From: Pseudoalteromonas tetraodonis
GTDB taxonomy: Bacteria > Pseudomonadota > Gammaproteobacteria > Enterobacterales > Alteromonadaceae
Direction: 5' to 3'
Assembly (NCBI RefSeq): GCF_002310835.1
Contig: NZ_CP011041.1
Coordinates: 1,290,001 to 1,322,000 of the forward strand
DNA length: 32,000 nt
Part shown: positions 5,311 to 28,470 of the stretch, piece by piece
Position numbering within the stretch: the stretch's first letter is position 1
How the letters are laid out: each line of letters starts with the position of its first letter
Program-made: the position numbers and the translations under genes
Notes under the pieces: model-generated
Told to the model about the DNA's origin: nothing
What the model saw: only the letters and a program-made list of their open reading frames with translations
Database searches by the model: none

Positions 5311-5381
5311 TTCTTTTTTATATTTAGAATGGTCTAATCGGCGGATTTACGCGCACTTACTTTTTATAAGTAAACCAGAGC

Positions 5382-5457: not shown

Positions 5458-5528
5458 TTCTTTTTTATATTTAGAATGGTCTAATCGGCGGATTTACTCG
5501 CACTTACTTTTTATAAGTAAACCAGAGC

Positions 5529-5604
5529 GGGTCATTAGCTCAGTTGGTAGAGCAGTGGACTTTTAATCCATTGGTCGATGGTTCAAGTCCATCATGACCC
5601 ACCA
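5529..5604 (+). tRNA. tRNA-Lys (UUU), copy 6
   Basis: Identical 76-nt sequence to copy 1. Confidence 0.95.
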
Positions 5605-5669
5605 TTCTTTACTGAATGGTTATAATCGGCGGATTTACGCAGCCTTACTTTTTATAAGTAAACCAGAGC

Positions 5670-5745
5670 GGGTCATTAGCTCAGTTGGTAGAGCAGTGGA
5701 CTTTTAATCCATTGGTCGATGGTTCAAGTCCATCATGACCCACCA
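5670..5745 (+). tRNA. tRNA-Lys (UUU), copy 7
   Basis: Identical 76-nt sequence to copy 1. Confidence 0.95.
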
Positions 5746-7106: not shown

Positions 7107-7196
7107 GGAGAGATGGCTGAGTGGCTGAAGGCGCACGCCTGGAAAGTGTGTTTAGGTTAATCCCTAACGAGGGTTCGAATCCCTCTCTCTCCACCA
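7107..7196 (+). tRNA. tRNA-Ser (anticodon GGA), class II with long variable arm
   Basis: Acceptor GGAGAGA/TCTCTCC. The D-loop and anticodon arm GAGTGGCTGAAGGCGCACGCCTGGAAAGTGTGT is close to my recollection of E. coli tRNA-Ser(GGA). Long extra arm TTTAGGTTAATCCCTAAC, T-arm GAGGGTTCGAATCCCTC, encoded CCA. Confidence 0.93.
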
Positions 7197-8962: not shown

Positions 8963-9355
8963 ATGTTTATACAAAACCTCAACAAAGCTCAACAAGAAGT
9001 GCTTCTCAAGTTAGCCAACGACCTAATGATCTCTGATGGTGTTATAGATCAAAGCGAAGAAGAATTGATTAGCTTTATTAAATCTCAGTGTACCGAAGGT
9101 GTATCTGAATTAGAAATCTTCAATCTAAGCGAAATCAAAGATATCTTTGACAGTAAAAAAGCCAAAGTCTCGATGTTACTTGAGCTTATTGGATTAGCTC
9201 ACGCTGATGGGGATTACGGTAAAGAAGAAATGGTTTTTATCAATGAAATAGCTTCAGTACTAAACATAAATGAAGCTAATTTAAATGAGTTGGAAAATTG
9301 GGTTAGACGTCAACTCGATTTAGTGAACGACTCAGTTATGTTCATGGAGGAATAA
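8963..9355 (+). CDS. TerB-like (tellurite-resistance TerB / DjlA-N fold) small protein
   Basis: 130 aa with two copies of the TerB-type hairpin motif: LANDLMISDGVIDQSEEELISFI and LIGLAHADGDYGKEEMVFINEIASVL. AAGGAA RBS. The stop is 2 nt before the next ATG. Confidence 0.6.
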   Translation: MFIQNLNKAQQEVLLKLANDLMISDGVIDQSEEELISFIKSQCTEGVSELEIFNLSEIKDIFDSKKAKVSMLLELIGLAHADGDYGKEEMVFINEIASVLNINEANLNELENWVRRQLDLVNDSVMFMEE

Positions 9356-9357
9356 CT

Positions 9358-10854
9358 ATGCCATTACCTTTATTTTTAGCGGGTGCAGCTATTGTAGCTG
9401 GTGGTTACGGAGTTAAAAAAGGGCTAGATGCGAAGTCTGACTATGATGAAGCTGATAGCATTAATAAGAGAGCTAGAAATATATTTGATGATGCAGAAAG
9501 TTCTTTAAATTCAAAACGTGAACAAGCAAATAGTTCAATGCTGGCTTTAGGAAGGACAAAATTCGATATATATGAGAATTCACTATTAAGTTTCGTGAAG
9601 AGCTTTAGTCAAATTAAAAATATTAATTTTAATGAGAGTGATATAAAAGGTTTAGAGTCTTTACCTGCTGTGGATAAAGCTGATTTAGAAAACTTAACTA
9701 ATTCCGTATTATCAACTCATGATGTTTTATCAGGTGGGGTTACAGCTCTTGGTACTGGTGGGTTAGCTGGCTTAGCTGCATATGGAGGAGTTGGTTTTTT
9801 AGGCACTGCATCAACAGGTACTGCAATAGGGTCTCTAACTGGTGTAGCAGCTACTAACGCTACTTTAGCTTGGTTAGGCGGTGGCTCGATTGCTGCAGGT
9901 GGCTACGGTATGGCAGGTGGTGCTGTTGTATTAGGTGGGTTAGTTGCTGGTCCAGTATTAGCTGTTGGTGGAATGATGCTCGCATCTAAAGCTGAAAGCG
10001 CAAAAATAGATGCATATTCAAATCGTGATAAAGCGAGATTAGCTGCTGAGCAAATGAAAACTGCTGAAGTCGTAACTGATGATATTCACCGTCGTTTTGA
10101 AGAAATTAATGATGTACTTCTTCGATTAAATACTTTCTTTAATTCTATGCTAAAAGAGTTTTGTGGCCTAGTTGCACGCAATATTGATTATTCAAGCTAT
10201 ACAGAAAATGAAAAAAAGCTAGTGTTTAAGGTAGCTGCTACAGCTAAGAGTATGAAGAACTTACTAGAAGTTGTAATAATTAATGAAGATGGCAGTTTAA
10301 CAAGTCAGTCAAACAATATTGCAAGCTTTGGAACGGCTATTATTGAAGGAGAACACCCTGAGCTAGCAAGTTTAGAACCAAACATTGAAGACCTTGATGT
10401 AAAGAAAGAGCCAGAGCCTAAAAAGGACTTAGAGCATTTCATTCGTGAGGTAAGTAGTCATATTGATGATCAAAAGTGGGTATATGCTTTATCACACGGT
10501 AAAAAGCTTAGAGATAAAACCGCATCAGCTGTAAAATCGTATGCACATGAAGACTATGAAGTTGATAGTGACTATAAGAGTGAGCCTTATGGTTTATTAG
10601 TGCTTATTGATACAACTCTTTTTGGTAGTGCCAAAGATGGTTTTTTCATAACTGACACGCATATTTATGGCAAGCCTTCTTACAATGATCGATTTAGCAT
10701 TGATATTAAGAAAATTAAATCAATCAGGGTTGATGATGATGATAGGGAGCTGAGTATAAATGGTGACTATTATGGCTACACACACACTGAAATTACTCCA
10801 GCGATGAAGTTAATTGTGAACGCAATTAAAAAATATTTAGAGCAATTTAAGTAA
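9358..10854 (+). CDS. Glycine-zipper membrane protein with coiled-coil flanks and C-terminal PH/GRAM-like domain
   Basis: 498 aa. Residues ~125-210 (nt ~9730-9987) read GGVTALGTGGLAGLAAYGGVGFLGTASTGTAIGSLTGVAATNATLAWLGGGSIAAGGYGMAGGAVVLGGLVAGPVLAVGGMMLAS, i.e. GxxxG-type zippers. The C-terminus YGLLVLIDTTLFGSAKDGFFITDTHIYG...IKSIRVDDDDRELSING resembles bacterial PH (YokE-like) domains. A GGAGG RBS lies inside the upstream gene's end. Confidence 0.7.
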   Translation: MPLPLFLAGAAIVAGGYGVKKGLDAKSDYDEADSINKRARNIFDDAESSLNSKREQANSSMLALGRTKFDIYENSLLSFVKSFSQIKNINFNESDIKGLESLPAVDKADLENLTNSVLSTHDVLSGGVTALGTGGLAGLAAYGGVGFLGTASTGTAIGSLTGVAATNATLAWLGGGSIAAGGYGMAGGAVVLGGLVAGPVLAVGGMMLASKAESAKIDAYSNRDKARLAAEQMKTAEVVTDDIHRRFEEINDVLLRLNTFFNSMLKEFCGLVARNIDYSSYTENEKKLVFKVAATAKSMKNLLEVVIINEDGSLTSQSNNIASFGTAIIEGEHPELASLEPNIEDLDVKKEPEPKKDLEHFIREVSSHIDDQKWVYALSHGKKLRDKTASAVKSYAHEDYEVDSDYKSEPYGLLVLIDTTLFGSAKDGFFITDTHIYGKPSYNDRFSIDIKKIKSIRVDDDDRELSINGDYYGYTHTEITPAMKLIVNAIKKYLEQFK

Positions 10855-10860
10855 CCTGTT

Positions 10861-10897
10861 ATTCGAGGGGGATACTGACCACCTCGAATCTTTTAAA
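10861..10897 (+). terminator. Hairpin, possible weak terminator or attenuator between genes 2 and 3 of module A
   Basis: ATTCGAGG (10861-10868) pairs with CCTCGAAT (10882-10889) around a 13-nt loop, followed by CTTTTAAA. Confidence 0.35.
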
Positions 10898-10922
10898 TAT
10901 ATTATCGAGCAATAAGCAGCTT

Positions 10923-12356
10923 ATGGAAAATACAAACTCTTCAGCGTCTATTTTGGGTGGGATCTATTCTCAACATTTAACGCAAGATATAACTGAGCGA
11001 ACATATCGGATATTCGGTGATGCAGACCAGCTATCTCAGTTTGCATCCAAATGGCAAAATGTAGTTGCTGATAAGTCTCAAGGTCATATGTTTGAGCAGT
11101 TAGAGACTATAAAATTTAACTTTGATGCCCTAAAAAAAGATAGCGACCTATATGCCAAAACTACTGCAAGTATGGGTTTACCTACAGATCCAGTTGACAT
11201 TATAATTTCAAACGGTAAAAAAACGATACGAGAGATACAGGCAAAGTCCTGTAACAGCGCGGCGAGAAGTGCGTTTGCTTTATCTCAAGAAAAGTATGAT
11301 GAAATGTTCCGCTTGGCTCCAAGTGATCAACACAGCAAAATAGAAGAGTTACTAAAGCAAAGAATACAAAAAGGCACGCTCAAAGCCGAAGATTATGAAC
11401 AGACACTCCGCAATCTAAAAAAGTCATTACAGCATGACGGTATTGCTTCAGAGGGAACAACCTACCAGGAAGCACTGGATGCAACAAATCAAGACCAAGC
11501 TGATAAAATAGCTAACAATTATAAGTTTAAATCTGCTGTTACTGATATGCATAAATCAGGTATGAAGGCTGGAGTTGTAGGGGCTAGTATAACTGGAGGG
11601 ATATCTATTTTAACTGGAGGCTACTCAGTAATAAAAGGTGAGAAAGATATTGCAGAAGCCTCTCTGAATACAGTAATTAACAGTGCAAAGGGTTTTGCAA
11701 CCGGTTATACCGTTACGGCGATCAGTAAAGGTATCACGCATTCTTCCTCTCATTTCTTAGGCGAGCAATTAGCTAAAAGTATCACGAGATCATCTGCGCC
11801 TGTTGCAATCGCTGTTGGAGTAGTTAATACAAGTAAGCACATAGTATCTTATTTAAAAGGTGATATAGAACTAGAAGAGTTAACCGATAATATAAGTCAT
11901 ATAGCTATAACGAGTACTTCATCTTTTTATTATGGTGCTTTGGGGCAGTTAGCGATTCCAATTCCTGTAGTTGGCGCCTTAGTAGGGGCGGGGGTTGGTT
12001 ATTTTATCGGGAATATGATCCATCAATCTGGTTTAGTTGCTTTAGGTGATAGTGCAGTCGTTAAAGCATCGAAAGAGCGCAGAGACCAAATACGCACTAT
12101 TTGTTTAGAAGCCATTCCACAAATTCAAAAAAATAGGGCTGAGCTTCAAAGCTTACTTGATAAACACTTTGCAGAAAGAGAACATATATTTGACTCGACA
12201 TTTTTAGCTATGGATTTGGCGGTAAGTAATACAGAACCAGATCAGTATATAGATGCTTTAAATTCTTTAAATGAAAGGTTTGACTGTGAGTTACCATTTC
12301 AAAACTTTGCCGAGTTTGATCAATTAATGCAAGCAGATCAGAGTTTTGATTTTTGA
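10923..12356 (+). CDS. Membrane protein with uncharacterised N-terminal soluble domain (possible PD-(D/E)xK-like) and glycine-rich TM segments
   Basis: 477 aa. The N-terminus has GHMFEQLETIKFN...DPVDIIISNGKKTIREIQAKSC. The Gly-rich hydrophobic segments are GMKAGVVGASITGGISILTGGY and LAIPIPVVGALVGAGVGYFIGNMI. The C-terminal part is helical. The stop overlaps the next start. Confidence 0.65.
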   Translation: MENTNSSASILGGIYSQHLTQDITERTYRIFGDADQLSQFASKWQNVVADKSQGHMFEQLETIKFNFDALKKDSDLYAKTTASMGLPTDPVDIIISNGKKTIREIQAKSCNSAARSAFALSQEKYDEMFRLAPSDQHSKIEELLKQRIQKGTLKAEDYEQTLRNLKKSLQHDGIASEGTTYQEALDATNQDQADKIANNYKFKSAVTDMHKSGMKAGVVGASITGGISILTGGYSVIKGEKDIAEASLNTVINSAKGFATGYTVTAISKGITHSSSHFLGEQLAKSITRSSAPVAIAVGVVNTSKHIVSYLKGDIELEELTDNISHIAITSTSSFYYGALGQLAIPIPVVGALVGAGVGYFIGNMIHQSGLVALGDSAVVKASKERRDQIRTICLEAIPQIQKNRAELQSLLDKHFAEREHIFDSTFLAMDLAVSNTEPDQYIDALNSLNERFDCELPFQNFAEFDQLMQADQSFDF

Positions 12357-14458: not shown

Positions 14459-16438
14459 ATGAATAAAGCTGAAGTGCACCGCAAAAAAGTTCAAGAAATC
14501 CTCGACGGCAATACTTTACATGGTCACCAAGTGAGTGCTGCCACAAAAACATTTAATGCATTCTCTAATGATGTGAGAGCTGTAGTAACAGCAGCTGAAA
14601 TGCAAGCTGGTAAATCTGGAATAGCGTTAGCTTTGTGTTGTTTGCAGCGTTTAAGCCTTGATGATGAAACAATTTGCCAAAAGCGCTCACTTAAAGACAC
14701 ATTATACTTAGTTACAATGCCAGATACGGCTTTGAGAGATCAAGCAGAAGATGATTTAAGACTTGCAAAGAATGTGGTTGTTAGTAACTTTGTTAATTTC
14801 GAAAAAGCCTTAGAAACAGATTTTAAAGGTAACCCTCCTAAATTAATCATCATCGACGAATGCCATTATGGTTCTAATGTTACCGGTATCCGATATAGCT
14901 CTGTGTTTGACTATCTAGAACAAGAAAATGACTCTTGCAAAGTAGTGTTTATCTCTGCGACACCTTTTGGCGCTCTATATGGTGCAGAAACAGAGTACGA
15001 AGAAGCGCTAGAGGCTAGTTCTGAAGCTGAGGAAGAGCATAACGACAAGCTGTTAAAAGAATCAACTCAAGCGGCGAGTCAAGCGCTTAAAGACTCTATT
15101 TTACGTCGTGATTTTGGTACTCGGTTGGTTTTTCATAAAACGAGTGATGAATACTACGGCGTACGGGAGATGCTAAAAAACAATCGCTTACACAATTTAA
15201 ATGACGAAGAAAGGAACTTCCTGGTTGACTCTGTACACCGCAAAAACTTTATGCAGCAATTCAATACTCATGAAGGCATGGGCTGGTCATTAGTTAGAGT
15301 TCCAGCAGGGACAGCAATGGATGCAAAGCAGTTCTTCATATCTGAAGGTGTTGATGAGGAAAATATTTATATACTAGGAAATTCACTTTCTGGAGTGCCA
15401 GAAGATGAGCTATCTACTATTGATAGGTTTAAAAAAGCATTTGAAGACAGTGAATTGTTTGGAGAAAAGTTAGTCGCGATTACAGTTGCAGGTTGCCGAG
15501 CAGGAATAAACTTCGGCAATTTAATGAAGAATAACCTTATTTCTACTTGGGATAGCACAGTTGCAAGTGTTGCTGCTGTTGTACAGGCTAATGTAGGTCG
15601 TGCGTGTGGGTATCACGGTAATAATACTTCAATGCACTTTACAAATGGGAATGCAGCTGAAGCCTATGGCGCTATATTGGATTACCTAGAACGCACATGC
15701 TCCGATCATGCTGCGTCTGATTTTGATGGCTTAAGAGAGTTTTTTGAAGACGTATGCCAAGAGTACCAAGTAAATGGTTTGGATGTAGGTTTAACAATAA
15801 AATATAAAAGGCGTAGGCCCATAGGTGATGTTGAAACATTCGAAACAGATCACTATGTAGCAGTACCAGCAAGGCTCCTGGACCAAGACTACGACTTTTC
15901 CCAGCATACCCAAGATAAGCTTCTTTTAAGTGCTATAACGGTCTTACGGGAAGAGTTTATTAAAAATGGAGCGCCGTCGGTAAAAGGTAGCAGAGCCATG
16001 CGAGGTAAAAAGAAAAACTGGATAAAAGCCCAGTGGGTTAATGGTGATAGCTATGATAATCCAGAAAAAGCTGGTGTAGACGGCCCTCAAAAAGATAGAA
16101 CAATAATGCTTACCAGCATGTTAGATAATGATGAATATGTTGAGTTTAATAGAGTCGTAGCCCCAGGCTCTGGGGAATTAACTGAGAATAAGTCAGTTAC
16201 AGCAACGGTGTTTAGCGTTTACAACATATCAAGACGTAAAGTGTCTAAAACAATAATGACGGAAAAAGATGTATGGGACATGTGTGATTATTTTGATATC
16301 CCTCATGACGATACTCTATTTGTATTATACAAGCGTGGTGAGTACGACTTTGATAGAACGTTAGCAAAAAAATCCCACAATGAGTTACCTGAAAAGTCAG
16401 GTACATTGAGTGACGAATCACAGTTTTCGGTTAAATGA
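14459..16438 (+). CDS. SF2 helicase-like ATPase, paralog 1 (DEAD/DEAH-type core + unknown C-terminal domain)
   Basis: 659 aa. Motif I is AEMQAGKSG (GKS at 14609-14617), motif II IIIDECHYG (DECH at 14855-14866), motif III FISATPF. Motif V/VI-like strings are AITVAGCRAGINFG and VQANVGRACGYH. AAGGAG RBS. Confidence 0.8.
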   Translation: MNKAEVHRKKVQEILDGNTLHGHQVSAATKTFNAFSNDVRAVVTAAEMQAGKSGIALALCCLQRLSLDDETICQKRSLKDTLYLVTMPDTALRDQAEDDLRLAKNVVVSNFVNFEKALETDFKGNPPKLIIIDECHYGSNVTGIRYSSVFDYLEQENDSCKVVFISATPFGALYGAETEYEEALEASSEAEEEHNDKLLKESTQAASQALKDSILRRDFGTRLVFHKTSDEYYGVREMLKNNRLHNLNDEERNFLVDSVHRKNFMQQFNTHEGMGWSLVRVPAGTAMDAKQFFISEGVDEENIYILGNSLSGVPEDELSTIDRFKKAFEDSELFGEKLVAITVAGCRAGINFGNLMKNNLISTWDSTVASVAAVVQANVGRACGYHGNNTSMHFTNGNAAEAYGAILDYLERTCSDHAASDFDGLREFFEDVCQEYQVNGLDVGLTIKYKRRRPIGDVETFETDHYVAVPARLLDQDYDFSQHTQDKLLLSAITVLREEFIKNGAPSVKGSRAMRGKKKNWIKAQWVNGDSYDNPEKAGVDGPQKDRTIMLTSMLDNDEYVEFNRVVAPGSGELTENKSVTATVFSVYNISRRKVSKTIMTEKDVWDMCDYFDIPHDDTLFVLYKRGEYDFDRTLAKKSHNELPEKSGTLSDESQFSVK

Positions 16439-16442: not shown

Positions 16443-18302
16443 ATGAATCAAGCAGAAAAGCACAGAGAGTATCTAGAGAAAATAGTATCTAGTGATACTT
16501 TCGAACATCAACAGCATGCTGCACAAAGAGCATTTAGCCATTTTGAAGAAGGTAGTCGTGCTGTTGTAATAACTGCTGAAATGCAATCAGGGAAGTCTGG
16601 TATTGCATTAGCATTAGCTGCTTTACAAAGACTTAGTCTATCAGATACAGATATTTGTGATCGCTCAAAATTAAAAGATACACTTTATTTAGTCACCATG
16701 GCTGATTTGTCGCTACAAGAGCAGGCCAAGCAAGATCTTACCAAATGTAATAATGTTGTTGTGAGTAACTTTACTAATATGAGTCTCGCACTCTCAAGTA
16801 ACTTTAAAGCCCAACCGCCTAAGCTCATTATCATAGATGAATGTCACTATGGTGCAGGTGCTGAGGCCGTTAGATATGCTAAAGTTTTTGAGTATCTGGA
16901 AAAAGAAAACACAAACTGTAAAGTTGCTTTTATTTCAGCCACACCTTTTAGCGCGCTTTACTCAGCAGGCGCAGAGTCTATTCTTCGTCACGACTTCAAA
17001 ACCAGTCTTGTTTTTCATAAAGCAAGTGATGAGTATTTGGGCATCAGGGAGATGCACCGCAACAACCAAATAGTAAAGTTAGCAGAAGAACAGCGTAACT
17101 TTTGTGATGACTCTTTACTACGTAAGCGTTTTATAAGGCAGTTCAAAGAGCACCGCTCATCTGGCTGGTCACTAATAAGGGTGCCAAGTAGTCAGGCAAG
17201 CCTAGCAAAAAGTATCTTATTAGAGAACGGTATAGCTGAAGAGCAAATTATGGTTATTGGCCAAAAGCTGGTGGGAGTTGAGGAAAGTGACTTAGCAAGT
17301 ATTGACGATTTTAAACGTGAATATGAAGCAGCAGCAATGTTTGACGATAAAGTCATTGCAATTACTGTTGCGGGCTTTAGAGCTGGCATTAATTTTGGTC
17401 AAGAAATGAAGAGTACGCTCATTAATACCTGGGATAGCACAATTGCTAATATAGCTGCAATTGTCCAGGCCAATATCGGGCGTGCTTGTGGCTATCACTG
17501 TAATGCGCAGGCCAAACACTATACTAACCTTGATGCTATTAAAGCTTACAGCGACTTACTTAATCACCTTGAATTAAATAGTGATAAAAGCGACTTCGAA
17601 GGTTTACATGCAGTTTTTGAAGATATTTGCGCTAAATATGATGTAAGAGGTTTTGATAGAGGGATTCAAATCTCACCAAATAAGGAATATACCACTTCTT
17701 CTCGGAAGAAAGATGATACTCAAACATATTTAACCCAAAGTTATTTATCGGTTCCAGGTAAGTTAACTACACCGAACTACGATTACTCAAAATACACCCA
17801 AAATCCTTTATTACTTGAGGCTATTGATCTGATCAGGGCAGAGTTATTAAAAGATGATGGCCCACACCGAAAGCAGGGTAGAGCCCTTAAAGGTGAAAAT
17901 CAAAATTGGATCAAAGCGCAATGGGTAAACGGTGTTACCTATGATGATTACACTCCAAGCTGTGCAAAAAGCAGAGCAATAGAATTCACTTCATTATTAG
18001 GTCAAGACCATCCATTAGAATTCAATAAAGTAGTTAACCCCGGTGGTGGAGAGACGACAAAAGATAAACGCGTTATGGCAAGTGTGTTTAGTGTATATAA
18101 CCTGTCTAAAAAAACTGATGCGTTTAAGCGTTCTATGGATGATGACGATTTGCAAGAGGTAAGTGAGCTATTGGGCGTTGAACTTGACGATACAATAATT
18201 TTATTGTTTTTACGCGGTGAATATTCTGATGATTTAACAGTAGCAAAAGAAGAGCAATCAAAATTAGTAGCGTCGAATCTTAAAGATAAATCTATATTTT
18301 GA
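16443..18302 (+). CDS. SF2 helicase-like ATPase, paralog 2
   Basis: 619 aa from the ATG at 16443, which is 4 nt after the paralog-1 stop. The N-terminus MNQAEKHREYLEKIV aligns with MNKAEVHRKKVQEIL of paralog 1. It has the same GKS (16590-16598), DECH, SAT and QANIGRACGYH motifs and is collinear over its full length. Confidence 0.8.
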   Translation: MNQAEKHREYLEKIVSSDTFEHQQHAAQRAFSHFEEGSRAVVITAEMQSGKSGIALALAALQRLSLSDTDICDRSKLKDTLYLVTMADLSLQEQAKQDLTKCNNVVVSNFTNMSLALSSNFKAQPPKLIIIDECHYGAGAEAVRYAKVFEYLEKENTNCKVAFISATPFSALYSAGAESILRHDFKTSLVFHKASDEYLGIREMHRNNQIVKLAEEQRNFCDDSLLRKRFIRQFKEHRSSGWSLIRVPSSQASLAKSILLENGIAEEQIMVIGQKLVGVEESDLASIDDFKREYEAAAMFDDKVIAITVAGFRAGINFGQEMKSTLINTWDSTIANIAAIVQANIGRACGYHCNAQAKHYTNLDAIKAYSDLLNHLELNSDKSDFEGLHAVFEDICAKYDVRGFDRGIQISPNKEYTTSSRKKDDTQTYLTQSYLSVPGKLTTPNYDYSKYTQNPLLLEAIDLIRAELLKDDGPHRKQGRALKGENQNWIKAQWVNGVTYDDYTPSCAKSRAIEFTSLLGQDHPLEFNKVVNPGGGETTKDKRVMASVFSVYNLSKKTDAFKRSMDDDDLQEVSELLGVELDDTIILLFLRGEYSDDLTVAKEEQSKLVASNLKDKSIF

Positions 18303-18381
18303 TTTTTTATAATGATCAATATTCAGATAACTATCAAACTATTTATTTTTCTAAGTAAAGCATGGGTTTAAAGGAACTAGC

Positions 18382-20400
18382 ATGGATGAAAAAACGTTAA
18401 GCTTTATTGAGAAGGCACAGTCAGTTCATGGAGATACTTATTCTTATAATAAATCCATTTATACCGGTAGTAATATAAAATTAACTATTACTTGCAAGCA
18501 CCATGGTGACTTTGAACAAACACCATCAAACCATTTCAAATATCATTGTTCTAAATGCTCAAAAGGGGCTCAAAATAAAGCTAAATTAGAGAAGGCTTCT
18601 GCAGTATACTTAGATAAGGTCATAGCTGTTCATCACGATAAATATGACTTATCAAAAGTAAACTATACAGGGGCCAAAAATAAAGTAACAGTAGCGTGTC
18701 TAGAGCATGGCTTATTTGAAATAACAGCTCAGCACTTTTTAGCTGGTAGTGGGTGTAAACAATGTGGAAATAAAAATACAAGATTAAAAACTATCGATAC
18801 AGCTTCTAAATCTTTTGAATCAAAGGCTAGAAAGATCCATGGGGATATGTTTGATTATAGTAAAGTAAACTACAAGGGGACCACTACAAAGGTTACAATA
18901 ACCTGCCCAGAGCATGGGGATTATATGCAAACACCTCGCAAACACCTAGAGGGTTCAGGTTGCCATAAGTGCGCAATAGATAACTCTGTTTCAAGGCTGT
19001 CTACCAGTGTATTTATAGAAAGAGCAAAAATAGTACATAAAAATAAGTACAACTATGCAAAAACTCAATTTACTAAGTCACATGAAGGTATAATTATCAC
19101 CTGTGAAGAACATGGTGATTTTTCACAAAATCCACATAATCACTTAGCTGGCGCGGGTTGCAAACTCTGTGCTAATGAAAAAATAACCTACACTACAGCT
19201 GAATTCATAGACCGAGCCAATAAGAAGCATAGCTCTTACTACTCATATGAAAAAACAGAGTATGTTGCGTCAAAAGTTAAAGTATTAATTACATGTCCTA
19301 CTCATGGCTTATTTTATCAGAAACCAATACTACATTTACAAGGTTATGGGTGTAATCGTTGTGCGGCTATTAAACGTGGTAAAGACAGCAGCTCATCAAC
19401 CGCTGAATTTATACAATACGCAAATTTCATACATGATTTTAAATGGAATTATGACAAAACAAAATATATAAATAACCATACAAAAGTAATAATAACCTGT
19501 GATACGCATGGTGACTTTGAGCAAACACCTGGAAGCCATAAAAGTGGCAAAGGTTGCCCTAAATGCGGAATTATTAAGTCTACTGAGTCTGGAAAGGTAA
19601 AATATGAAGAGTTTTTATTAAGAGCTCAAAATGTTCATGGTGACAAGTATTTGTATGACTTAGTTAAATATTCTACATACGGTGAAAAGGTTAGTATAAA
19701 GTGCTTACTGCATGGTGTTTTTAATCAATCACCGACTTCACATATTAGAGGAGCAGGGTGCCCAACATGTGGTTTAGAGTCTTCTAGAGAAAAACAGAGA
19801 ATTCCATATAACGTCATACTAAAGAAAGCAAACGAAGTCCATAACTTCAAATATAGTTATGCTGAATGTAGTGATGAAAATTCAGAACGTAAATTACTCG
19901 TCTATTGTCCGGTACATGGAAAATTTGAACAGAAAATTGATGCTCACCTTAAAGGAATCGGTTGCCCAAAATGCAGTTGCATTAAGCGTAATATGCAGAC
20001 AGAAGAATTTATAGACAGAGCTAATGCAATACATAGAGGAAAATATGGCTATGAGTATGTTGACTGTAATGGCACTAAAAGAATACTAAAAATTGAATGC
20101 TATAAGCATGGTATATTTGAGCAAGTAGCTTCTCAACATTTAAAAGGCAGCGGTTGCAGAGACTGCTATGTGGATTCAACAAAACTTACCCTAGAAAATT
20201 ACCTTAAAGATTGTAAAAAATTACATGGTGATAAATATGGCTATTCTAAATTAGAATATAATACTATCAGAGACAAGGTCATTATTACTTGTCATACCCA
20301 TGGTGATTTCCTCCAAACAGCTCATGATCATAAACATGGCGGAGGGTGCCCCAAATGTGCTGAATATTTTAGAAATTTAGACAATAAAGACCCTGATACT
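18382..20400 (+). repeat. Ten tandem coding repeats (64-75 aa each) inside the zinc-ribbon/nuclease gene
   Basis: Repeat boundaries by residue are 1-75, 76-144, 145-210, 211-274, 275-342, 343-410, 411-478, 479-542, 543-606 and 607-673. Each keeps the C-x2-H ... H-x4-C-x2-C ligand set. They are diverged at the nucleotide level. Confidence 0.85.
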
Positions 20401-20709
20401 CCTTGTCACATATATTATTTGCAACTAAAAACAGAGCACCTTATTTTTTATAAAGTAGGCATAACAACGAAAAGCGTAGAAGAACGTTTTTATCGTTTGA
20501 AGAAAGATAATACCAAAATTTTGGATCAACTTAGTGCCCTGACAACTCTTGATAAAGCCATTGTTGCCGAACAAACCATATTAGAAGAGTTTGAAGAACA
20601 TAAACTCTTAATGTCAGATACTTTGGTGTTAAGTGGAGGTGGAACCGAGTGTTTTGCTGATGATGTATTAGGGATGCATGGCTTAGAATTAGAAGACTAC
20701 ATTACCTAG
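18382..20709 (+). CDS. Protein of ten zinc-ribbon repeats fused to a C-terminal T5orf172/GIY-YIG-like nuclease domain
   Basis: 775 aa. Residues 1-673 are ten modules with the pattern F(I/L)xxAxxxHGxKYxYxxxxYxxxxxKVxIxCxxHGxFxQxPxxHLxGxGCPxC. Residues 674-775 read PCHIYYLQLKTEHLIFYKVGITTKSVEERFYRL...AEQTILEEF...GGGTECF, which is GIY/YIG-R-E-like. AAAGGA RBS. Confidence 0.8.
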   Translation: MDEKTLSFIEKAQSVHGDTYSYNKSIYTGSNIKLTITCKHHGDFEQTPSNHFKYHCSKCSKGAQNKAKLEKASAVYLDKVIAVHHDKYDLSKVNYTGAKNKVTVACLEHGLFEITAQHFLAGSGCKQCGNKNTRLKTIDTASKSFESKARKIHGDMFDYSKVNYKGTTTKVTITCPEHGDYMQTPRKHLEGSGCHKCAIDNSVSRLSTSVFIERAKIVHKNKYNYAKTQFTKSHEGIIITCEEHGDFSQNPHNHLAGAGCKLCANEKITYTTAEFIDRANKKHSSYYSYEKTEYVASKVKVLITCPTHGLFYQKPILHLQGYGCNRCAAIKRGKDSSSSTAEFIQYANFIHDFKWNYDKTKYINNHTKVIITCDTHGDFEQTPGSHKSGKGCPKCGIIKSTESGKVKYEEFLLRAQNVHGDKYLYDLVKYSTYGEKVSIKCLLHGVFNQSPTSHIRGAGCPTCGLESSREKQRIPYNVILKKANEVHNFKYSYAECSDENSERKLLVYCPVHGKFEQKIDAHLKGIGCPKCSCIKRNMQTEEFIDRANAIHRGKYGYEYVDCNGTKRILKIECYKHGIFEQVASQHLKGSGCRDCYVDSTKLTLENYLKDCKKLHGDKYGYSKLEYNTIRDKVIITCHTHGDFLQTAHDHKHGGGCPKCAEYFRNLDNKDPDTPCHIYYLQLKTEHLIFYKVGITTKSVEERFYRLKKDNTKILDQLSALTTLDKAIVAEQTILEEFEEHKLLMSDTLVLSGGGTECFADDVLGMHGLELEDYIT

Positions 20710-20733: not shown

Positions 20734-20760
20734 AAAAGCCGTTCTACTTGAACGGCTTTT
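20734..20760. terminator. Bidirectional rho-independent terminator
   Basis: AAAAGCCGTTC (20734-20744), loop TACTT, GAACGGCTTTT (20750-20760). The A-run and T-run flanks suit both convergent units. Confidence 0.8.
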
Positions 20761-20780
20761 ATAACAAATCTGTTTGTTAA

Positions 20781-20939
20781 CTATCTACAGGCTTTTGATT
20801 CTTCGATCATTGCACGTTGAACAGCTACTGTTTCTTTGATTACTTTGTCGAAGAATTTTCTCTTTTCTTTCGCTGAACCGTTACGTACAAATTCAGAAAA
20901 AGGCGTAGACTTAACTTTTTCACGAGATTGAACTAACAT
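20781..20939 (-). CDS. Small 52-aa ORF immediately downstream of the zeta-like kinase (not in the supplied ORF track)
   Basis: Minus-strand ATG at 20937-20939, preceded by AGGAG (complement of 20946-20950) at 6-nt spacing and 13 nt after the kinase stop. It translates to MLVQSREKVKSTPFSEFVRNGSAKEKRKFFDKVIKETVAVQRAMIEESKACR, with its stop at 20781-20783. The terminator follows. Confidence 0.55.
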   Translation of the reverse strand: MLVQSREKVKSTPFSEFVRNGSAKEKRKFFDKVIKETVAVQRAMIEESKACR

Positions 20940-20952
20940 GTCATACTCCTAT

Positions 20953-21669
20953 TTATGTTGAATTACCTATACCGGCTATACGCTCTAAGGACGCGCGATT
21001 ATACTTTTTGCCAAGTAGAGCGTCAATATCACTTACATTAAAGTAAGGCTTTTCTTTTGTTCCATCAAGGTTTTTTTCCATAAAAATAATATCTATATCA
21101 TCCTTGAAAATATTTTTTAATTCGCTGACCACACGTTGAGACTCTAAGAACTGATTTACAAAAACCTCAGGTGGAACCCTTCTTCCTTCAACTATTTCGC
21201 GAGCCTTTACTAAGCACCAAGCTTGTTCGGGATCTTGATAAACAAATATAACCAAAACGTAGCGATCTTTACGTAAAGAACGTTCAATATTCGACTTTGC
21301 CTTTTCAAAACTTGAAAGCGTAGAGTCGAGTAAAAAACTAACCTTTTTCTTTAAAGCTCTGTCATGTATTGCTTCCACTAAAATAGTTGCAGGTGTTTGA
21401 AATAGCGGAGAGTTTAACCCCTGGTAGTCATCAAACTCCTTTCTTAGTTCATCATTTTCTATGTGAACAACATCAACCCCATGCTCTTTTTTAAATTGCG
21501 AAATAATACTTTTAGCAGTCTCTGTTTTTCCTGCACCAGGGGAGCCCGCCATAAAAACAGATACAGCACTTTCTTCTTCTGGCAAATGATCAATCATACT
21601 TTTGGCAAGGGTTTTCTTCATTGCTTTAGCTTTAACTAGCGCTTTTTTTGTAATTTCTTCATCTGTCAT
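20953..21669 (-). CDS. Zeta-toxin-family P-loop kinase-like protein
   Basis: 238 aa. Walker A is FMAGSPGAGKTE, followed by VVHIENDELRKEF (the zeta/PezT-type D-x-x-R region). The size and layout are typical of the zeta toxin domain. Confidence 0.7.
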   Translation of the reverse strand: MTDEEITKKALVKAKAMKKTLAKSMIDHLPEEESAVSVFMAGSPGAGKTETAKSIISQFKKEHGVDVVHIENDELRKEFDDYQGLNSPLFQTPATILVEAIHDRALKKKVSFLLDSTLSSFEKAKSNIERSLRKDRYVLVIFVYQDPEQAWCLVKAREIVEGRRVPPEVFVNQFLESQRVVSELKNIFKDDIDIIFMEKNLDGTKEKPYFNVSDIDALLGKKYNRASLERIAGIGNST

Positions 21670-21702
21670 AATGTATCAAATTTAAGGTTAATTCACATAA
21701 AT

Positions 21703-21723
21703 AAAGGGGTTAAAAACCCCTTT
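21703..21723 (-). terminator. Hairpin terminator candidate after the TPR gene
   Basis: AAAGGGG (21703-21709) pairs with CCCCTTT (21717-21723). On the minus strand it is followed by ATTTATGTG. It lies 40 nt downstream of the stop at 21764. Confidence 0.5.
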
Positions 21724-21763
21724 AAATCCAGTAGTATACTAAAGATCACTTTACATTTTTGGC

Positions 21764-22984
21764 TTAGGTCATCCCCCAAAACTCAGATTTAATATCATCA
21801 GCATTATTGTTTTTATATATGTTTTCACTTATCAAGTAAGCTTGAGATTGATTGTTATTAACCATAAAGTGCTTATCATTCTTTTTATAAAGCTTAAATG
21901 CATAGTGGTATTGGCTTGAATATGTCGCAGTAGCTGAAAATACATTGGTGATATTATTTTTCGCTATAAATTGAAAAATAGCTTGAGCGACATAGTTTAA
22001 TCTTTCATCCCGGCCCATATTCATTGTAAACATTGAATGCGAACCTTGATCATCAAATGCAACAAATATCTCAATGACTTCATTTGAATCTTTAAAGATA
22101 AAGTTAACTACTCTACCGTCTAGCTTCATATCACCATCGTTATCAATTTCATATAGGTGGGAGGTTTCATTATTAACATACATAACCTCACCATTTTTAA
22201 CGATAAACATTATATCGACTTCAGCTTCTACTAGCCTCATTCCACCATTGTAATTGATCTTCTGATTGCTAATTTTATTAACGGTCTTAGAAGACTTGCT
22301 TATTGAAATTAATTTATTAAGTATTTTTGTTCTAATTTCAAACATTTTCTGCGGGTCACGGCTGAAGCAACAAAGAATGCCTTTAAAAAAGACAAAAGCC
22401 TGTTGAGTACTACTAGTTTCAGTAACATTTACAAACTCAGAATGATCAATACCGCAATTTAAAGCATACTCTTGGTGTACTCCACCCATTTCTTCAAGCT
22501 CTTTTATCTCCTCATTCACAAAGTGCTTAATAGCATTAAAATCGTTTTTTAAATGTGTATTACTTAAAACTTCAGCCCAGCGAGTTGTAAAATGCTCGAA
22601 GCCATCACTCGCTAGTTGCCCTCTAATTTTATCGCCATTTTGTTCTTCAAAGCTCAGAAATAGCTTTATTCGCTCTAGGTTTTGTAAAGCCATCGGAGAT
22701 GCATGCCCATCATCGAGAGATTGCTTCTTTTGTTCCATATTTATAACTTTAAGGTAATCATCATATGCCTCGAGATATCTCTCTTGAATCGCATAGCAGT
22801 TAGCTCTATTTAAATATACGTTTGAATGGTTTGGGCTGACTTCAAGTGATTTTGTAAAGAATAAAATAGCGTCATCTTGATTGCCATATTGATGATACTG
22901 AAGTGCTTGGCGAAAGAATTGTTCACCTTGGGCTTCTGCCTTAGGGTCCGTTTTAATTCTTGAGAAAAAGCTAAATAGAGACAT
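21764..22984 (-). CDS. TPR-repeat protein with uncharacterised C-terminal domain
   Basis: 406 aa. The N-terminus FFRQALQYHQYGNQDDAILFFTKSLEVSPNHSNVYLNRANCYAIQERYLEAYDDYLKVI is 2-3 TPR units; the remainder is unrecognised. An AAGGAA RBS lies in the 25-nt gap after the upstream gene. Confidence 0.7.
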   Translation of the reverse strand: MSLFSFFSRIKTDPKAEAQGEQFFRQALQYHQYGNQDDAILFFTKSLEVSPNHSNVYLNRANCYAIQERYLEAYDDYLKVINMEQKKQSLDDGHASPMALQNLERIKLFLSFEEQNGDKIRGQLASDGFEHFTTRWAEVLSNTHLKNDFNAIKHFVNEEIKELEEMGGVHQEYALNCGIDHSEFVNVTETSSTQQAFVFFKGILCCFSRDPQKMFEIRTKILNKLISISKSSKTVNKISNQKINYNGGMRLVEAEVDIMFIVKNGEVMYVNNETSHLYEIDNDGDMKLDGRVVNFIFKDSNEVIEIFVAFDDQGSHSMFTMNMGRDERLNYVAQAIFQFIAKNNITNVFSATATYSSQYHYAFKLYKKNDKHFMVNNNQSQAYLISENIYKNNNADDIKSEFWGMT

Positions 22985-23009
22985 ATTATTTCCTTATAAT
23001 AAGGTTGAG

Positions 23010-23915
23010 CTAAAAGCAGTGCGAAAGAGCATACTGTCGATTGTGAAAGTAAGTATTATTGATTTTAAAATCGGTATTTGCTAATAACTCGCTAGGTTTA
23101 TCCAAATATATTGATTGGATATATTCTTTTGGAATATGACTATTAACGAGAATTTCGGCTTGTGAGTCAGTAGGGTCACAAGCTCGTAAATTGATAGGTT
23201 GATTATTAAAAAGCTGTTTTAATGCCACACTTCCTGAAAGGGATGCCTCAGTTGCTGATGCTATAGAAGAGCTAGCAGCATTTGCGGGGCAAAATAAGCA
23301 GTCAAGCTCCCATAAAACACGGGCAGATATTTCTAACACAGCCCAGCTTTCTTCTGGTTGTGCTTGTCTATACTTATAAAACATCTTGTCGTTAGGGTAG
23401 GACACAGATAACGAAATCATGTGAGTTCTGTAGTCAAATCGATTAGCATCGTTGTAAATATGACCTTTAGATATTTCGTTATTATAATCTTTACTATTAA
23501 GGCCTATATCCAAAATGCTTTTAAGGTTTTTCACTTTTGTAAAGTGTATTAATGTAGTAATTCCACGCTCGCTACAAAATTGCTTAATAAGCTCTTTATC
23601 ATCAATATTCGCATATTTACCTAATCCATAATGCTTCATTACGGCATCAATTAATTCAAGACGTAATGAAATAGTATTTTGATAGCTGCCTAAGTCAGCT
23701 ATTAAAGTTGAAAACAGAATGTTAGGGCTATTTAACTCCAGCAGTGGCATCTCAGTCTTTAGTTTTACACCACTGGATTTAGCAAAATTACGAACCAGGA
23801 GAGAGCTTTTGTTAGCGAAAGATAATTCATTTACTACAAATTCAGCTGCAATAGCTGGAGTAGGTAAAAGGGCTAATGTCTTGTTTAACATTGGCTCAAA
23901 CATATTAATTTCCAT
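23010..23915 (-). CDS. DarT (DUF4433)-like ADP-ribosyltransferase domain protein with ~115-aa N-terminal extension
   Basis: 301 aa. The ordered motifs are LIHFTKVKNLKSILDIGL, MISLSVSYPNDKMFY, WAVLEIS...CLFCPANAAS and DPTDSQAEILVNSHIPKEYIQSIYL. These correspond to the H-x-T..NL.SIL, (F/Y)-rich, NA and QAE-x-LV motifs of DarT. Its ATG abuts the upstream TAA. Confidence 0.65.
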   Translation of the reverse strand: MEINMFEPMLNKTLALLPTPAIAAEFVVNELSFANKSSLLVRNFAKSSGVKLKTEMPLLELNSPNILFSTLIADLGSYQNTISLRLELIDAVMKHYGLGKYANIDDKELIKQFCSERGITTLIHFTKVKNLKSILDIGLNSKDYNNEISKGHIYNDANRFDYRTHMISLSVSYPNDKMFYKYRQAQPEESWAVLEISARVLWELDCLFCPANAASSSIASATEASLSGSVALKQLFNNQPINLRACDPTDSQAEILVNSHIPKEYIQSIYLDKPSELLANTDFKINNTYFHNRQYALSHCF

Positions 23916-24605
23916 TTAAATAAATAAATCCTTTTGTACAGGGGAGGCGCAACTTCCGATGCTTTGGCTTAAGTGAGCTATAAACTCATCAGCAGAGCGA
24001 GTAACTTGTTCTAAAGTGCCATTCTTGACTAAAGAAACATATAAAGCAGCTGCTCTAGCCTGGCAATTAACGCTTTTTTTAGGGTTAAATTCAATATCAG
24101 TAAACGCATTATATTGAATAATTTGAGAGTGTAGTTCTTTGTTTAATTTTAAAGCATTAATGTAAATCCAATCATAAAATACAGTTTTAGGTGTGAGTGG
24201 CCAGGTTTTTCCATTACTAAAAAAGCCAGTTAAACAGCCGCTCTCAACTAAACGGCTATCTCGTTTAACTTCATGTGTCGGAATTGTTAGAAGCTCTTTA
24301 AAAGGGCCGCCATTTTCAAACACTTTAGATGCATGAAAAATATTCTCCAGTGGAACTTCGCGACCATTTTTTAATGTAACGATCAAATTGAAAGCACTTA
24401 GGCTTATACCCAAGGTACTCTCACTTTTTGTAGAGATCTCAAGTACATTTAAATCATTAAACAAGTTATGCGCAGCGTTATGTAAAGAGCGAACAGATTT
24501 TTGCTTTTGTGTGGCTGCCATTCCTTTATGCCATTCAAAGTCAATAAGCTCTTCCTGTACATAAGGAAACGGCTTAATCACTTTAAAAACGGGTCTAGTA
24601 GCCAC
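23916..24605 (-). CDS. Hypothetical 229-aa protein, candidate partner or antitoxin of the DarT-like protein
   Basis: A GTG start at 24603-24605, 10 nt after the pglZ stop. No macrodomain-like motifs are visible. The string LSAFNLIVTLKNGREVPLENIFHASKVF is only faintly NADAR-like. It is tightly coupled to the downstream gene. Confidence 0.6.
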   Translation of the reverse strand: MATRPVFKVIKPFPYVQEELIDFEWHKGMAATQKQKSVRSLHNAAHNLFNDLNVLEISTKSESTLGISLSAFNLIVTLKNGREVPLENIFHASKVFENGGPFKELLTIPTHEVKRDSRLVESGCLTGFFSNGKTWPLTPKTVFYDWIYINALKLNKELHSQIIQYNAFTDIEFNPKKSVNCQARAAALYVSLVKNGTLEQVTRSADEFIAHLSQSIGSCASPVQKDLFI

Positions 24606-26679: not shown

Positions 26680-28470
26680 TCAAATACTAGGTAATTTAAA
26701 GAGCTCAACTACTTTAGATACTAAAAGTTCTGTTCTATTTTTGATTTTATCAACAGACCAGCTGGTTTCCGAAGCTAATTTACTATTTAGATACAGACCG
26801 TTTTTATATCCAACCGGGTTGCCTTTCCGATTTGTTCTATCACGTTTCTCTTCGAAGCTCTTATTACCTAATGTGCTGTTGTAGCCTGAAATTGTAAGAT
26901 TCCCTAAATAGTGAACATATTGTTGTTTGTATGTTTGGGCTAGTTCTTTGTCACCATTAGCTATCATATTAACCCAAGACTCAGGTATGTTGTCACCCTG
27001 CGGGAATATATGTTCAATTGTCCAAACATATTGTTTGCCCTCAATTGCCCATAAATTAACGGTTGATTCCCTTGTCATTACACTCTCTTCAATGGCACAA
27101 AGAGCAAAACGACATACCGCTTTATTATCATCATATAGGTTGCCAGATAGCCCTTTAATAAAGTCTTCATCTGATGCACTTACATTTACTAATGACTTAC
27201 AAATAAGGTCATAAATCGCATCACCTTTTAGCTTTGTAGCCTCATCAGAGAGGGACATAAATATTTTTGTTAAATCTCTCGTGGCAGGTGTATCTGTAGT
27301 ATTCCTACGCACAAAAAAAGCAATTAACAAAGTAACAATTTTTTCAAAATGTTCTGATTTCAACTCTAGTGTTTCTTGTTTACTAAACAGTAGGAGTAAT
27401 AATAGATACGATGGAACACCCTGAATGTTTTCTAAGCTAGACAGCAGTCCTGTTAATTTAGGGTTATCCGGAACTTCTTTATTGCCAATAATTTGCGCGT
27501 ACAAATTAGCATGCACCATCATTGTTTTTAAGAAACTGCTAGCATCATTGGCGATCAGTTTTTCGTAAATATGAATAAGGTTAGATTTAGTCGCAACAGG
27601 AACACTAACAATATGCTTTAATTCAGGTTTAAATGCATTGTAGTACTGCCTAAAATATCGTTCTTGTATTCCATAATCATCACCAAGATAAGCTAATACT
27701 TTCATCCAATTATTAAAGTGCTTATCTATTTGCCCTGCATCATCCGACTCAAGTTTTGCCAACAACTTGTTTTTTATTAAATCAATAGCAGTAAGTGGTA
27801 CCCCTCTGTTATTCAAAGATTCAAACAAAGTATATGCATCAGAATGACTAGCCACTTCAATTTTCACTAAGGTGGCTGTATTTACTTTATCTATTAACTC
27901 AGAAAGCGCTGCAAGCTGATCGGTAGCTTGATATAAAACGTCGTCTATCCTTCTACAAAAATGTCTAAAAGCTCGCAATACACGTCGATTTCCAGCATTT
28001 GAGATATGTTCAGCATTTTCTAAAATACCGGCTTGTTTAAGCACCCAAAAATAATCCTGTTGATTGTTATTTTGAACTTGAGGCGTTAGACGAGTCAGCT
28101 CTGGGGAGTTTTTTAATATTAGTTTATTTTTTAAGTTATAAAGTTCTATCTGTTGCGGCATATCGAGAGTTAACTCTAAGTTGCCATAACACTTGTAGAT
28201 AGCTGCCATTAACAAAGATAAAGTAGTCATTCTTTGCTGGCCATCTACTAATTCTAGTTCCTGGATCTTTAATGAATCTAAACTTTGATTTATGCAGATA
28301 ATAGAACCTAAAAAGTAGCTTGGATCATTTTCAAGTAAGTCTTCAAAAAGAGTATCCCATTGTATTTTCCCCCATGTATATTCACGTTGATACCTAGGGA
28401 TGTTATATACAACCGCTGCTTCAATATTAAATAAAGTCGAAACAGGGTAGTTATCAACGGACTTAATCAT
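26680..28470 (-). CDS. brxU: GmrSD-family type IV restriction-like enzyme (DUF262 + DUF1524), BrxU-like
   Basis: The N-terminal DUF262/ParB-like strings are IPRYQREYTWG, FLGSII and VDGQQR (28231-28245). The C-terminal His-Me finger is WTIEHIFPQ...YLGNLTISGYNSTLGNKSFEEK. The ATG at 28468-28470 overlaps the pglX stop by 8 nt (ATGATTAA); the track start at 28503 is an alternative. Confidence 0.8.
   Translation of the reverse strand: MIKSVDNYPVSTLFNIEAAVVYNIPRYQREYTWGKIQWDTLFEDLLENDPSYFLGSIICINQSLDSLKIQELELVDGQQRMTTLSLLMAAIYKCYGNLELTLDMPQQIELYNLKNKLILKNSPELTRLTPQVQNNNQQDYFWVLKQAGILENAEHISNAGNRRVLRAFRHFCRRIDDVLYQATDQLAALSELIDKVNTATLVKIEVASHSDAYTLFESLNNRGVPLTAIDLIKNKLLAKLESDDAGQIDKHFNNWMKVLAYLGDDYGIQERYFRQYYNAFKPELKHIVSVPVATKSNLIHIYEKLIANDASSFLKTMMVHANLYAQIIGNKEVPDNPKLTGLLSSLENIQGVPSYLLLLLLFSKQETLELKSEHFEKIVTLLIAFFVRRNTTDTPATRDLTKIFMSLSDEATKLKGDAIYDLICKSLVNVSASDEDFIKGLSGNLYDDNKAVCRFALCAIEESVMTRESTVNLWAIEGKQYVWTIEHIFPQGDNIPESWVNMIANGDKELAQTYKQQYVHYLGNLTISGYNSTLGNKSFEEKRDRTNRKGNPVGYKNGLYLNSKLASETSWSVDKIKNRTELLVSKVVELFKLPSI

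Follow-up and report, generated by a model that had tools for sequence, protein, structure and literature searches.

Introduction

Phage homing endonucleases with a C-terminal T5orf172 domain are commonly built together with zinc fingers: Barth, Nguyen & Seed (2023) found CapR, DUF723 or DUF4379 zinc-finger domains in 200 of 229 such proteins, with the fingers often repeated as 'beads on a string', and reported recombination between the repeats as well as domain swapping (PMC10448857). CapR, the capsid-operon repressor of the Vibrio cholerae satellite PLE, binds DNA in electrophoretic mobility shift assays, and Cys-to-Ser mutants were made to probe the role of its conserved cysteine pairs in binding (PMC8096241). 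Odn, the origin-directed nuclease ICP1 Gp88, is a T5orf172 protein that cleaves DNA in vitro and is inactive as the E180A mutant (PMC8263062); it is experimental proof that a T5orf172 tail of this kind cuts DNA. Here we describe a chromosomal gene of this architecture in Pseudoalteromonas tetraodonis, found in a 32,000-nucleotide stretch of contig NZ_CP011041.1 (the window). We call it the array gene; its 775-aa product, the array protein, consists of ten zinc-finger units followed by a T5orf172-type nuclease-like tail.

The phage T5orf172 homing endonucleases (ICP1 gp165/gp174; Vibrio phage Helene; PMC10448857) share with the array gene the order of N-terminal repeated fingers and C-terminal T5orf172 domain, a change in repeat number through recombination between units (here an 11-unit allele), the swapping of tails among family members and the intergenic insertion of a single gene. 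They differ in that up to six units are illustrated in the phage survey whereas the array gene has ten, and in that the array gene is chromosomal, in a bacterial defence island, and not carried by a phage. CapR has a homologous zinc-finger module with demonstrated DNA binding, but it acts as a repressor, has neither a nuclease tail nor a long array, and shows the ligand set C-x2-C...C-x-C where the array gene has C-x2-H...C-x2-C. Odn has the same T5orf172 domain with conserved Arg and Glu and a separate DNA-binding module that picks the target; this module is a RepA_N domain in Odn and would be the finger array here, and Odn is phage-encoded and aimed at a satellite. I-TevI and other free-standing or intron GIY-YIG homing endonucleases of T4-like phages similarly join a nuclease to an extended DNA-binding region with a degenerate treble-clef zinc finger, and their genes are likewise inserted between conserved genes. 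I-TevI, however, carries its nuclease at the N terminus, the reverse order, has a single zinc finger together with NUMOD and helix-turn-helix elements, and gave no significant sequence or fold match to the array-protein tail in this analysis.

Ten finger units precede a T5orf172-type tail

A motif scan of the array protein reveals ten C-x2-H-G and ten C-x2-C sites at regular spacing. Unit boundaries were set by cutting after each C-x2-C, which gives an array of aa 1-661, or 85% of the protein, with 61 aa in unit 1 and 64-69 aa in units 2-10. The ten units can be aligned without internal gaps. All ten have H22, C44, H47, G48, C63 and C66 (unit numbering), each unit thus carrying an invariant C-x2-H...C-x2-C tetrad, and at least nine keep Y28, F50, Q52, H57, G60 and G62. 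A profile of the unit matches the array protein ten times, with E values of 1e-25 to 1e-30 each; the ten-unit repeat is far beyond chance. A first-pass annotation of this stretch had also counted ten units with invariant ligands, which we confirm; its unit lengths of 64-75 aa and repeat share of 87% are replaced by the figures above, and its spacing of H-x4-C-x2-C before the second ligand pair by H-x5-C-x2-C, found in nine of the ten units. Pairwise identity between units is 25-44% at the protein level (mean 35%) and ~49% at the DNA level. Neither Tandem Repeats Finder nor a direct-repeat search detected a DNA-level repeat inside the gene, and the units are therefore old.

The repeats match Pfam DUF723 (E 7.9e-13, 48.6 bits against a gathering score of 20.9) and DUF4379, a 'probable treble clef zinc finger' (E 7.4e-12, 45.7 bits against a cutoff of 24.5), whereas the CapR model PF21817 stays below its cutoff (15.8 against 24.2 bits). 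Judged by these matches, the array protein is a member of the DUF723/DUF4379 branch and not CapR proper. Among the PHROGs it matches phrog_681 'endonuclease' (E 1.8e-141) and phrog_559 (E 3.4e-110), and phrog_4605 is matched in 10 stretches. Units 9-10 plus the tail were modelled by AlphaFold2 (AF2) with high confidence, at a predicted local distance difference test score (pLDDT) of 92. In this model a unit folds as an alpha-helix, then a beta-hairpin with C-x2-H at its turn, then C-x2-C at a helix N terminus, placing C44, H47, C63 and C66 as putative zinc ligands in treble-clef geometry. The modules had been described as zinc ribbons fused to a T5orf172-type tail. Putative zinc-binding modules joined to a nuclease-like tail are what we find; the term ribbon has to be given up, since Pfam assigns treble clefs and the AF2 geometry is that of a treble clef and not of a two-knuckle ribbon. 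NCBIfam has no model for the array protein, sequence searches of the PDB with the full protein and with profiles of the unit, the tail and units 9-10 plus tail returned nothing meaningful, and Foldseek found no significant PDB match for the three-domain model of units 9-10 and the tail.

The tail (aa 662-775, 114 aa) reads HIYYL...YKVGIT...RF...AEQ...GGTECF. Pfam places T5orf172 (PF10544) at aa 677-741, scoring 21.1 bits with the full-length protein and 22.2 bits when only the tail is searched, a small margin over the cutoff of 20; ten of 20 related tails match T5orf172 individually (best E 1.8e-6) and five match MUG113. In 21 diverse relatives no change is seen at Y678, K691, G693, R702, E730, E756 and F758. 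Of these, Y678 in strand 1 and K691-x-G693 in strand 2, together with R702 and E730, fit the GIY-YIG residue pattern, and catalytic roles may be proposed for them by analogy only. Modelled alone, the tail adopts a beta-beta-alpha-beta-alpha topology compatible with GIY-YIG (pLDDT 89.5). When it was compared by Foldseek with BFVD, predicted structure against predicted structures, 64 viral proteins were found at E<=1e-3, with probability 1.00 and TMq 0.6-0.75, under names such as T5 Orf172 domain, CapR homology or intron-associated endonuclease. The assignment of a T5orf172-type tail made earlier is thus upheld by a Pfam score above cutoff and by a tail fold common to viral T5orf172 proteins.

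The array is long for a known architecture

The full-length array protein has at least 4,252 database relatives, and the best 120 of these typically combine 6-11 units with a tail of ~110-135 aa. Searching exhaustively with the unit profile, we found the module in 32,002 representative protein clusters; E<=1e-30 was reached in 15,208. The longest array seen has 14 units, arrays of 6-9 units are common, and about 15 of the top 150 matches have at least ten. Ten units are the upper tail of a continuous length distribution and no separate kind. Relatives occur in 1,201 phage records, and a single phage genome can have as many as 13. The 50 best viral proteins with the tail fold in BFVD are 116-541 aa long, leaving room for about 0-6 units. 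A homology search with the tail only, for the distribution of array lengths, returned just two fragments.

The architecture had been called unusual in the first-pass annotation. Fingers with T5orf172 are, however, described for phage homing endonucleases (PMC10448857), 6-11 units are usual in the best 120 matches, and 14 exist. What holds is that ten units are long, lying in the upper tail of array lengths where viral proteins with the tail fold fit at most about six. With the architecture already described in phages, the array length and the bacterial setting are noteworthy and not categorically new.

Nuclease tails of at least three types occur in fusion with finger arrays, namely T5orf172, DUF559-like and Vsr-like 'HGDFWHGNP' (T5orf172-type and Vsr-like tails were told apart by alignment inspection); the arrays are joined also to other restriction-endonuclease-like tails and to modules of superfamily 2 (SF2) helicase and methyltransferase. 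Such interchange of arrays and tails parallels the domain shuffling of homing endonucleases (PMC10448857). Other long-array members reside in a V. harveyi island with an AAA_13 ATPase and a resolvase, in an AbiH/SIR2 defence island (E1/E2) and on a jumbo-phage-like contig.

In three proteins of 1,137-1,294 aa (P0016, P0087 and P0112) finger arrays are fused to a SNF2/DEAD helicase plus Methyltransf_8 module. On a 428-kb jumbo-phage-like contig (L051, 8001-12685) the gene for an 829-aa array protein without nuclease tail lies beside a separate helicase-methyltransferase gene. These cases represent another use of the array.

The array gene is a single-gene cassette

Comparison with related loci shows that the array gene is a discrete ~2.4-kb single-gene insertion between the stop codon of the helicase-like gene H2, which precedes it, and a terminator hairpin (Table 1). 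On the left, homology to L055, a locus with a different cassette, ends at 18253, and homology to empty-site alleles (L006) at ~18300. DNA homology to Colwellia, Thalassotalea and other loci breaks off at the H2 stop codon (~18300) and sets in again at ~20729; that to L055 sets in again at 20734. The hairpin (-16.3 kcal/mol, z = -7.0) stands within ~5 nt of the H2 stop codon in loci lacking the array gene. The leader of the cassette contains AAAGGA ~8 nt before the array-gene ATG, likely its ribosome-binding site. A promoter and terminator scan of the leader gave nothing convincing, and no terminator was found between H2 and the array gene; read-through from the helicase operon is therefore possible.

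Close relatives fill the same slot differently. L055, with flanks 95.6% and 99.1% identical to the window (left and right, respectively), holds an unrelated Sel1-like ORF of 152 aa, the slot of L060 is empty, and L056, L057 and L058 carry an 843-aa allele with 11 units. In this allele (L056 6479-6886) the extra unit measures 204 nt, shares 80% identity with the adjacent unit and has a duplicated peptide stretch at its flanks, which is direct evidence that unit number has changed in this lineage by a recent unequal crossover. Intergenic insertion of one gene, with presence/absence polymorphism between collinear alleles, is what a free-standing homing-endonuclease gene would show.

Orthologues at 50-59% identity keep all ten units, and their homology to the array gene is confined to the ORF. 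They are found beside McrBC, between IS66 and Y1 transposases (L044) and beside a DprA/helicase gene (L004), in each case without H1/H2 (H1 being the helicase-like gene upstream of H2). The ratio of nonsynonymous to synonymous divergence (dN/dS) between orthologues is 0.12-0.18, with dS up to 0.8, and the ORF is intact in seven of seven orthologues examined. Given this ratio, the array gene is functional and not a decaying relic. All ten units are colinear among orthologues; the highest rate of change is that of unit 8, the lowest rates are those of units 1 and 10 and of the tail. Inside each unit, scaffold positions stay constant, and the residues between them change freely. We therefore agree with the earlier view that the repeats, diverged in DNA sequence, are maintained, as dN/dS and the colinearity of the ten units down to 50% identity attest.

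In L004, directly downstream of the 50%-identical orthologue, a second CapR-array/T5orf172 gene (9759-11141) is split into ORFs of 267 aa and 175 aa and looks like a frameshifted, decaying paralogue.

The helicase pair is not a conserved partner

H1 and H2 are full-length paralogues, 48% identical, of a compact SF2 helicase-like family (417 clusters). An unbiased genome scan from the helicase side yielded 33 genuine loci from many genera, nearly all with the tandem pair, and the array gene lies downstream of the helicases in one of the 33 (a Pseudoalteromonas); a single Pseudoalteromonas island lineage has this arrangement. Of the 32 other loci, 27 have BREX pglZ in convergent orientation to the pair. 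Behind H2, a few further loci have ORFs that are mutually unrelated and show no Pfam nuclease domain, and no conserved third gene emerged; we therefore rejected the idea of a variable third nuclease after H2. A Rosetta-stone argument was likewise rejected, as the helicase parts of the array-SF2-helicase fusions show no similarity to H1/H2. PADLOC-DB v2 contains no family that matches the array protein or either helicase at E<=0.01.

The array gene is not a conserved partner of the helicases. The first-pass annotation had tied the two together; the single occurrence among 33 loci, the discrete insertion and the differing slot of close relatives undo this tie, and the locus looks largely like that of a mobile homing-endonuclease-type gene unrelated to its neighbours.

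Homing cassette or domesticated nuclease: two possible readings

We hold, with about even confidence, that the array gene is a free-standing, sequence-directed nuclease cassette of the homing-endonuclease type and of the phage T5orf172/CapR-DUF723 family, acquired singly and functionally independent of H1/H2, and that it persists by homing or cassette exchange. The ten treble-clef units would act as 'beads on a string' that jointly read a long or degenerate DNA target, and the C-terminal T5orf172 domain, with Arg702 and Glu730 as putative catalytic residues, would then cut the DNA nearby. The cassette could spread and persist if its product cut alleles that lack it and repair then copied it in; flank-mediated cassette exchange between island variants would be another route to persistence. 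DNA binding by the fingers is suggested by the example of CapR, and DNA cleavage by the tail by that of Odn. Homing or exchange is favoured because of the documented behaviour of the family, because the surroundings can be rich in transposases or include a decaying copy, and because no immunity partner accompanies the gene.

Several results weigh against this reading. Foldseek found no PDB match for the tail at E<=0.001 and no GIY-YIG entry in the 50 listed matches (all E > 0.7), and the tail profile found nothing among PDB sequences. With hhalign, the same profile scored a probability below 1% against two single-sequence targets, one Pfam GIY-YIG protein and, as a lead only, the I-TevI domain. 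Because these direct comparisons are not significant, the link to the GIY-YIG superfamily rests on Pfam clan placement and literature (PMC8263062), and it is by this established classification that the array-protein tail would belong there. Furthermore, IMG/VR viral contigs contain no close relative of the array protein (best 38% identity), orthologues occupy several unrelated genomic sites, at odds with strict site specificity or a single fixed homing site, and long retention under purifying selection (dS up to 0.8) in repeated company of defence genes fits a host-beneficial role at least as well. Homing, a target site and cleavage by the gene product are themselves proposed by analogy.

The main rival, which we consider possible though somewhat improbable, is a domesticated stand-alone defence nuclease, a finger-directed T5orf172 protein kept for cutting phage, plasmid or rival-island DNA, in which many fingers would permit several or degenerate targets. 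Co-option of this kind is favoured because of the purifying selection, which has held over dS up to 0.8 and preserved the ten-unit layout down to 50% identity, and because of the recurring defence-island company: long arrays are found near BREX, DarT1-NADAR and zeta toxin here, and elsewhere near McrBC, near AbiH, SIR2 and E1/E2, and in the island with an AAA_13 ATPase and a resolvase. The distance of the nearest IMG/VR relative also suits it, and homing-endonuclease parts co-opted in phage-satellite conflicts have a precedent in Odn and CapR (PMC8263062, PMC8096241). Yet no PADLOC model matches the array protein, no methylase or immunity gene travels with the array gene, and the defence company rests on six contexts sampled, in a setting that gathers selfish DNA too, as the IS66 and Y1 transposases of L044 and the decaying paralogue of L004 illustrate. 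An array gene that serves as the third part of a helicase-helicase-nuclease defence system, with the helicases translocating on or sensing DNA and the array nuclease as effector, is very unlikely. In favour of such a role, the array gene has the orientation of H2 and starts 79 nt behind it without an intervening terminator, the trio stays joined in Pseudoalteromonas island variants while other cassettes vary, and arrays are fused to SF2 helicases elsewhere. The phyletic pattern, however, largely refutes such a system: the pair lacks the array gene in 32 of 33 loci across many genera, close relatives have an empty slot or one filled by a Sel1-like ORF, and orthologues of the array gene occur without the helicases. 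In addition, the helicases of the fusion proteins are unrelated to H1/H2, and neither the array gene nor the helicases have a PADLOC match.

Equally unlikely is a non-cleaving, CapR-like regulator, whose array would bind DNA to repress or occlude while its tail is catalytically silent. CapR shows that the finger family can repress transcription (PMC8096241), and the T5orf172 score barely above the Pfam cutoff would agree with a silent tail; but 21 diverse relatives all keep the putative catalytic residues Y678, R702 and E730, orthologues conserve the tail better than most other parts of the protein, and CapR itself has no nuclease domain. A modified-DNA reader, molecular ruler or multivalent decoy, the roles raised in the first-pass annotation, we regard as the least probable explanation of all. 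We found no evidence for any of the three. The length of the array and the proximity to BREX and GmrSD, which concern DNA modification, are the only points in favour, whereas scans of Pfam, PADLOC and NCBIfam found no domain that reads modified bases, the proximity to BREX comes from the helicase pair and not from the array gene, and the documented behaviour of the family is sequence-directed binding and cleavage.

If the array gene is indeed a homing-endonuclease-type cassette, the outcome is mostly a clean annotation, and a spurious 'helicase plus nuclease system' hypothesis is removed. It would also mean that phage-type T5orf172/zinc-finger homing-endonuclease genes live as swappable cassettes in bacterial defence islands, with long arrays kept by selection. 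The slot is available in occupied, empty, replaced and 11-unit form, and these alleles could distinguish homing from defence co-option and reveal the number of fingers needed for target recognition. A bolder proposal, which we think improbable, is that finger-nuclease genes with long arrays (at least 8-10 units) in bacterial defence or mobile islands encode domesticated immunity enzymes of a restriction-like, single-gene kind that make up a class of their own. These would be natural 'zinc-finger nucleases', with independently evolving units that recognise several or degenerate invader sequences and a specificity re-tuned by gain or loss of units (10 versus 11) and by turnover of surface residues on a fixed scaffold. 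If the units were to follow a decipherable recognition code, they could provide a new programmable DNA-binding scaffold.

The island and its other variable bays

The window begins with tolB-cpoB, followed by seven tRNA-Lys genes, nadA, a tRNA-Ser gene and then the island, a tRNA-Ser-integrated defence island, as the first-pass annotation had supposed in placing the gene in a bacterial island. An integrase, TerB, the candidate system PDC-M09A/B, the two helicase-like genes and the array gene follow in this order; on the opposite strand are a zeta toxin, a TPR protein, DarT1-NADAR, PglZ, a GmrSD/BrxU-like gene and PglX. The island is a recombination mosaic, with dS ranging from 0.02 to 1.4 for one genome pair.

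Table 1. Coordinates of the array gene, its cassette slot and other features, as positions in the window.
Feature	Position	Strand	Evidence or remarks
Array gene ORF	18382-20709	+	775 aa, ATG start; ten treble-clef zinc-finger units and T5orf172 nuclease-like tail
Ten-unit array	18382-20364	+	Unit alignment, Pfam, PHROGs, AF2 model of units 9-10
Unit 1	18382-18564	+	
Unit 2	18565-18771	+	
Unit 3	18772-18978	+	
Unit 4	18979-19176	+	
Unit 5	19177-19368	+	
Unit 6	19369-19572	+	
Unit 7	19573-19776	+	
Unit 8	19777-19980	+	
Unit 9	19981-20172	+	
Unit 10	20173-20364	+	
C-terminal T5orf172-type (GIY-YIG clan) nuclease-like domain, aa 662-775	20365-20706	+	Pfam, conserved residues, AF2, Foldseek
Left slot junction	18254-18302	+	Last ~50 nt of H2; blastn breakpoints, junction alignment
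Cassette leader	18303-18381	+	79 nt, AT-rich; missing from loci without array gene (junction alignment)
Right slot boundary, hairpin with 11-bp stem and A-run and T-run flanks (bidirectional terminator)	20734-20760		Fold and junction alignments
Helicase H1	14459-16438	+	SF2 helicase-like
Helicase H2	16443-18302	+	SF2 helicase-like
Seven tandem tRNA-Lys(UUU) genes	4804-5745	+	Between cpoB/ybgF and nadA
tRNA-Ser(GGA)	7107-7196		Island integration site, beside P4-type integrase
TerB-domain protein and PDC-M09A/B	8963-12356	+	PADLOC matches for the latter two
H2-pglZ interval	20734-24605		Cargo bay
GmrSD-family (BrxU-like) type IV restriction gene	26680-28503	-	Between pglX and pglZ

The convergence of the H1/H2 pair with BREX pglZ, together with the interval between them, may bear more on the biology of defence systems than the array gene does. 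The pair is kept across many Gammaproteobacteria and also in an Oxalobacteraceae metagenome-assembled genome and in Rhodanobacter (loci L006-L035). Pfam sees only the N-terminal ResIII/DEAD half of either protein, and no PADLOC model matches them, BrxHI and BrxHII included. Most loci with the pair have no BrxL-sized gene after pglZ. The pair may be an undescribed BREX accessory, may stand in for BrxL or may form a two-gene system that accompanies BREX. A megablast search of E. coli genomes for the BREX surroundings of the pair gave no match, and in one large Aeromonas record copies of insertion sequences disrupt the locus. The start of H2 was called mechanically as GTG at 16410, overlapping H1; alignment with its paralogue and homologues (619 aa, MNxAEKHR) moves it to the ATG given in Table 1, 4 nt after the H1 stop codon.

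The interval between H2 and pglZ, like the equivalent gap in L006-L035, where the 3' ends face each other, behaves as a cargo bay for interchangeable cassettes. Its contents across loci are a zeta toxin (12 loci), TPR, DarT1 and NADAR genes (6), a ~480-aa protein (3), small three-gene sets, a Sel1-like ORF or other genes, or nothing.

The block of TerB and PDC-M09A/B (E 3.6e-30 and 5.8e-19 for the two PADLOC matches) is shared with L003 and replaced in L001 and L055 by DUF6998 and small ORFs; being present or replaced across islands, it forms a second variable bay, beside the integrase. The GmrSD position is held in L001/L002 (L001 17327-19254) by a 216-aa protein and a 426-aa AAA_15/SMC_N ATPase, and in L003 pglZ directly abuts pglX. 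Outside the island, the seven tRNA-Lys genes have equal scores and are spaced ~141-147 bp apart.

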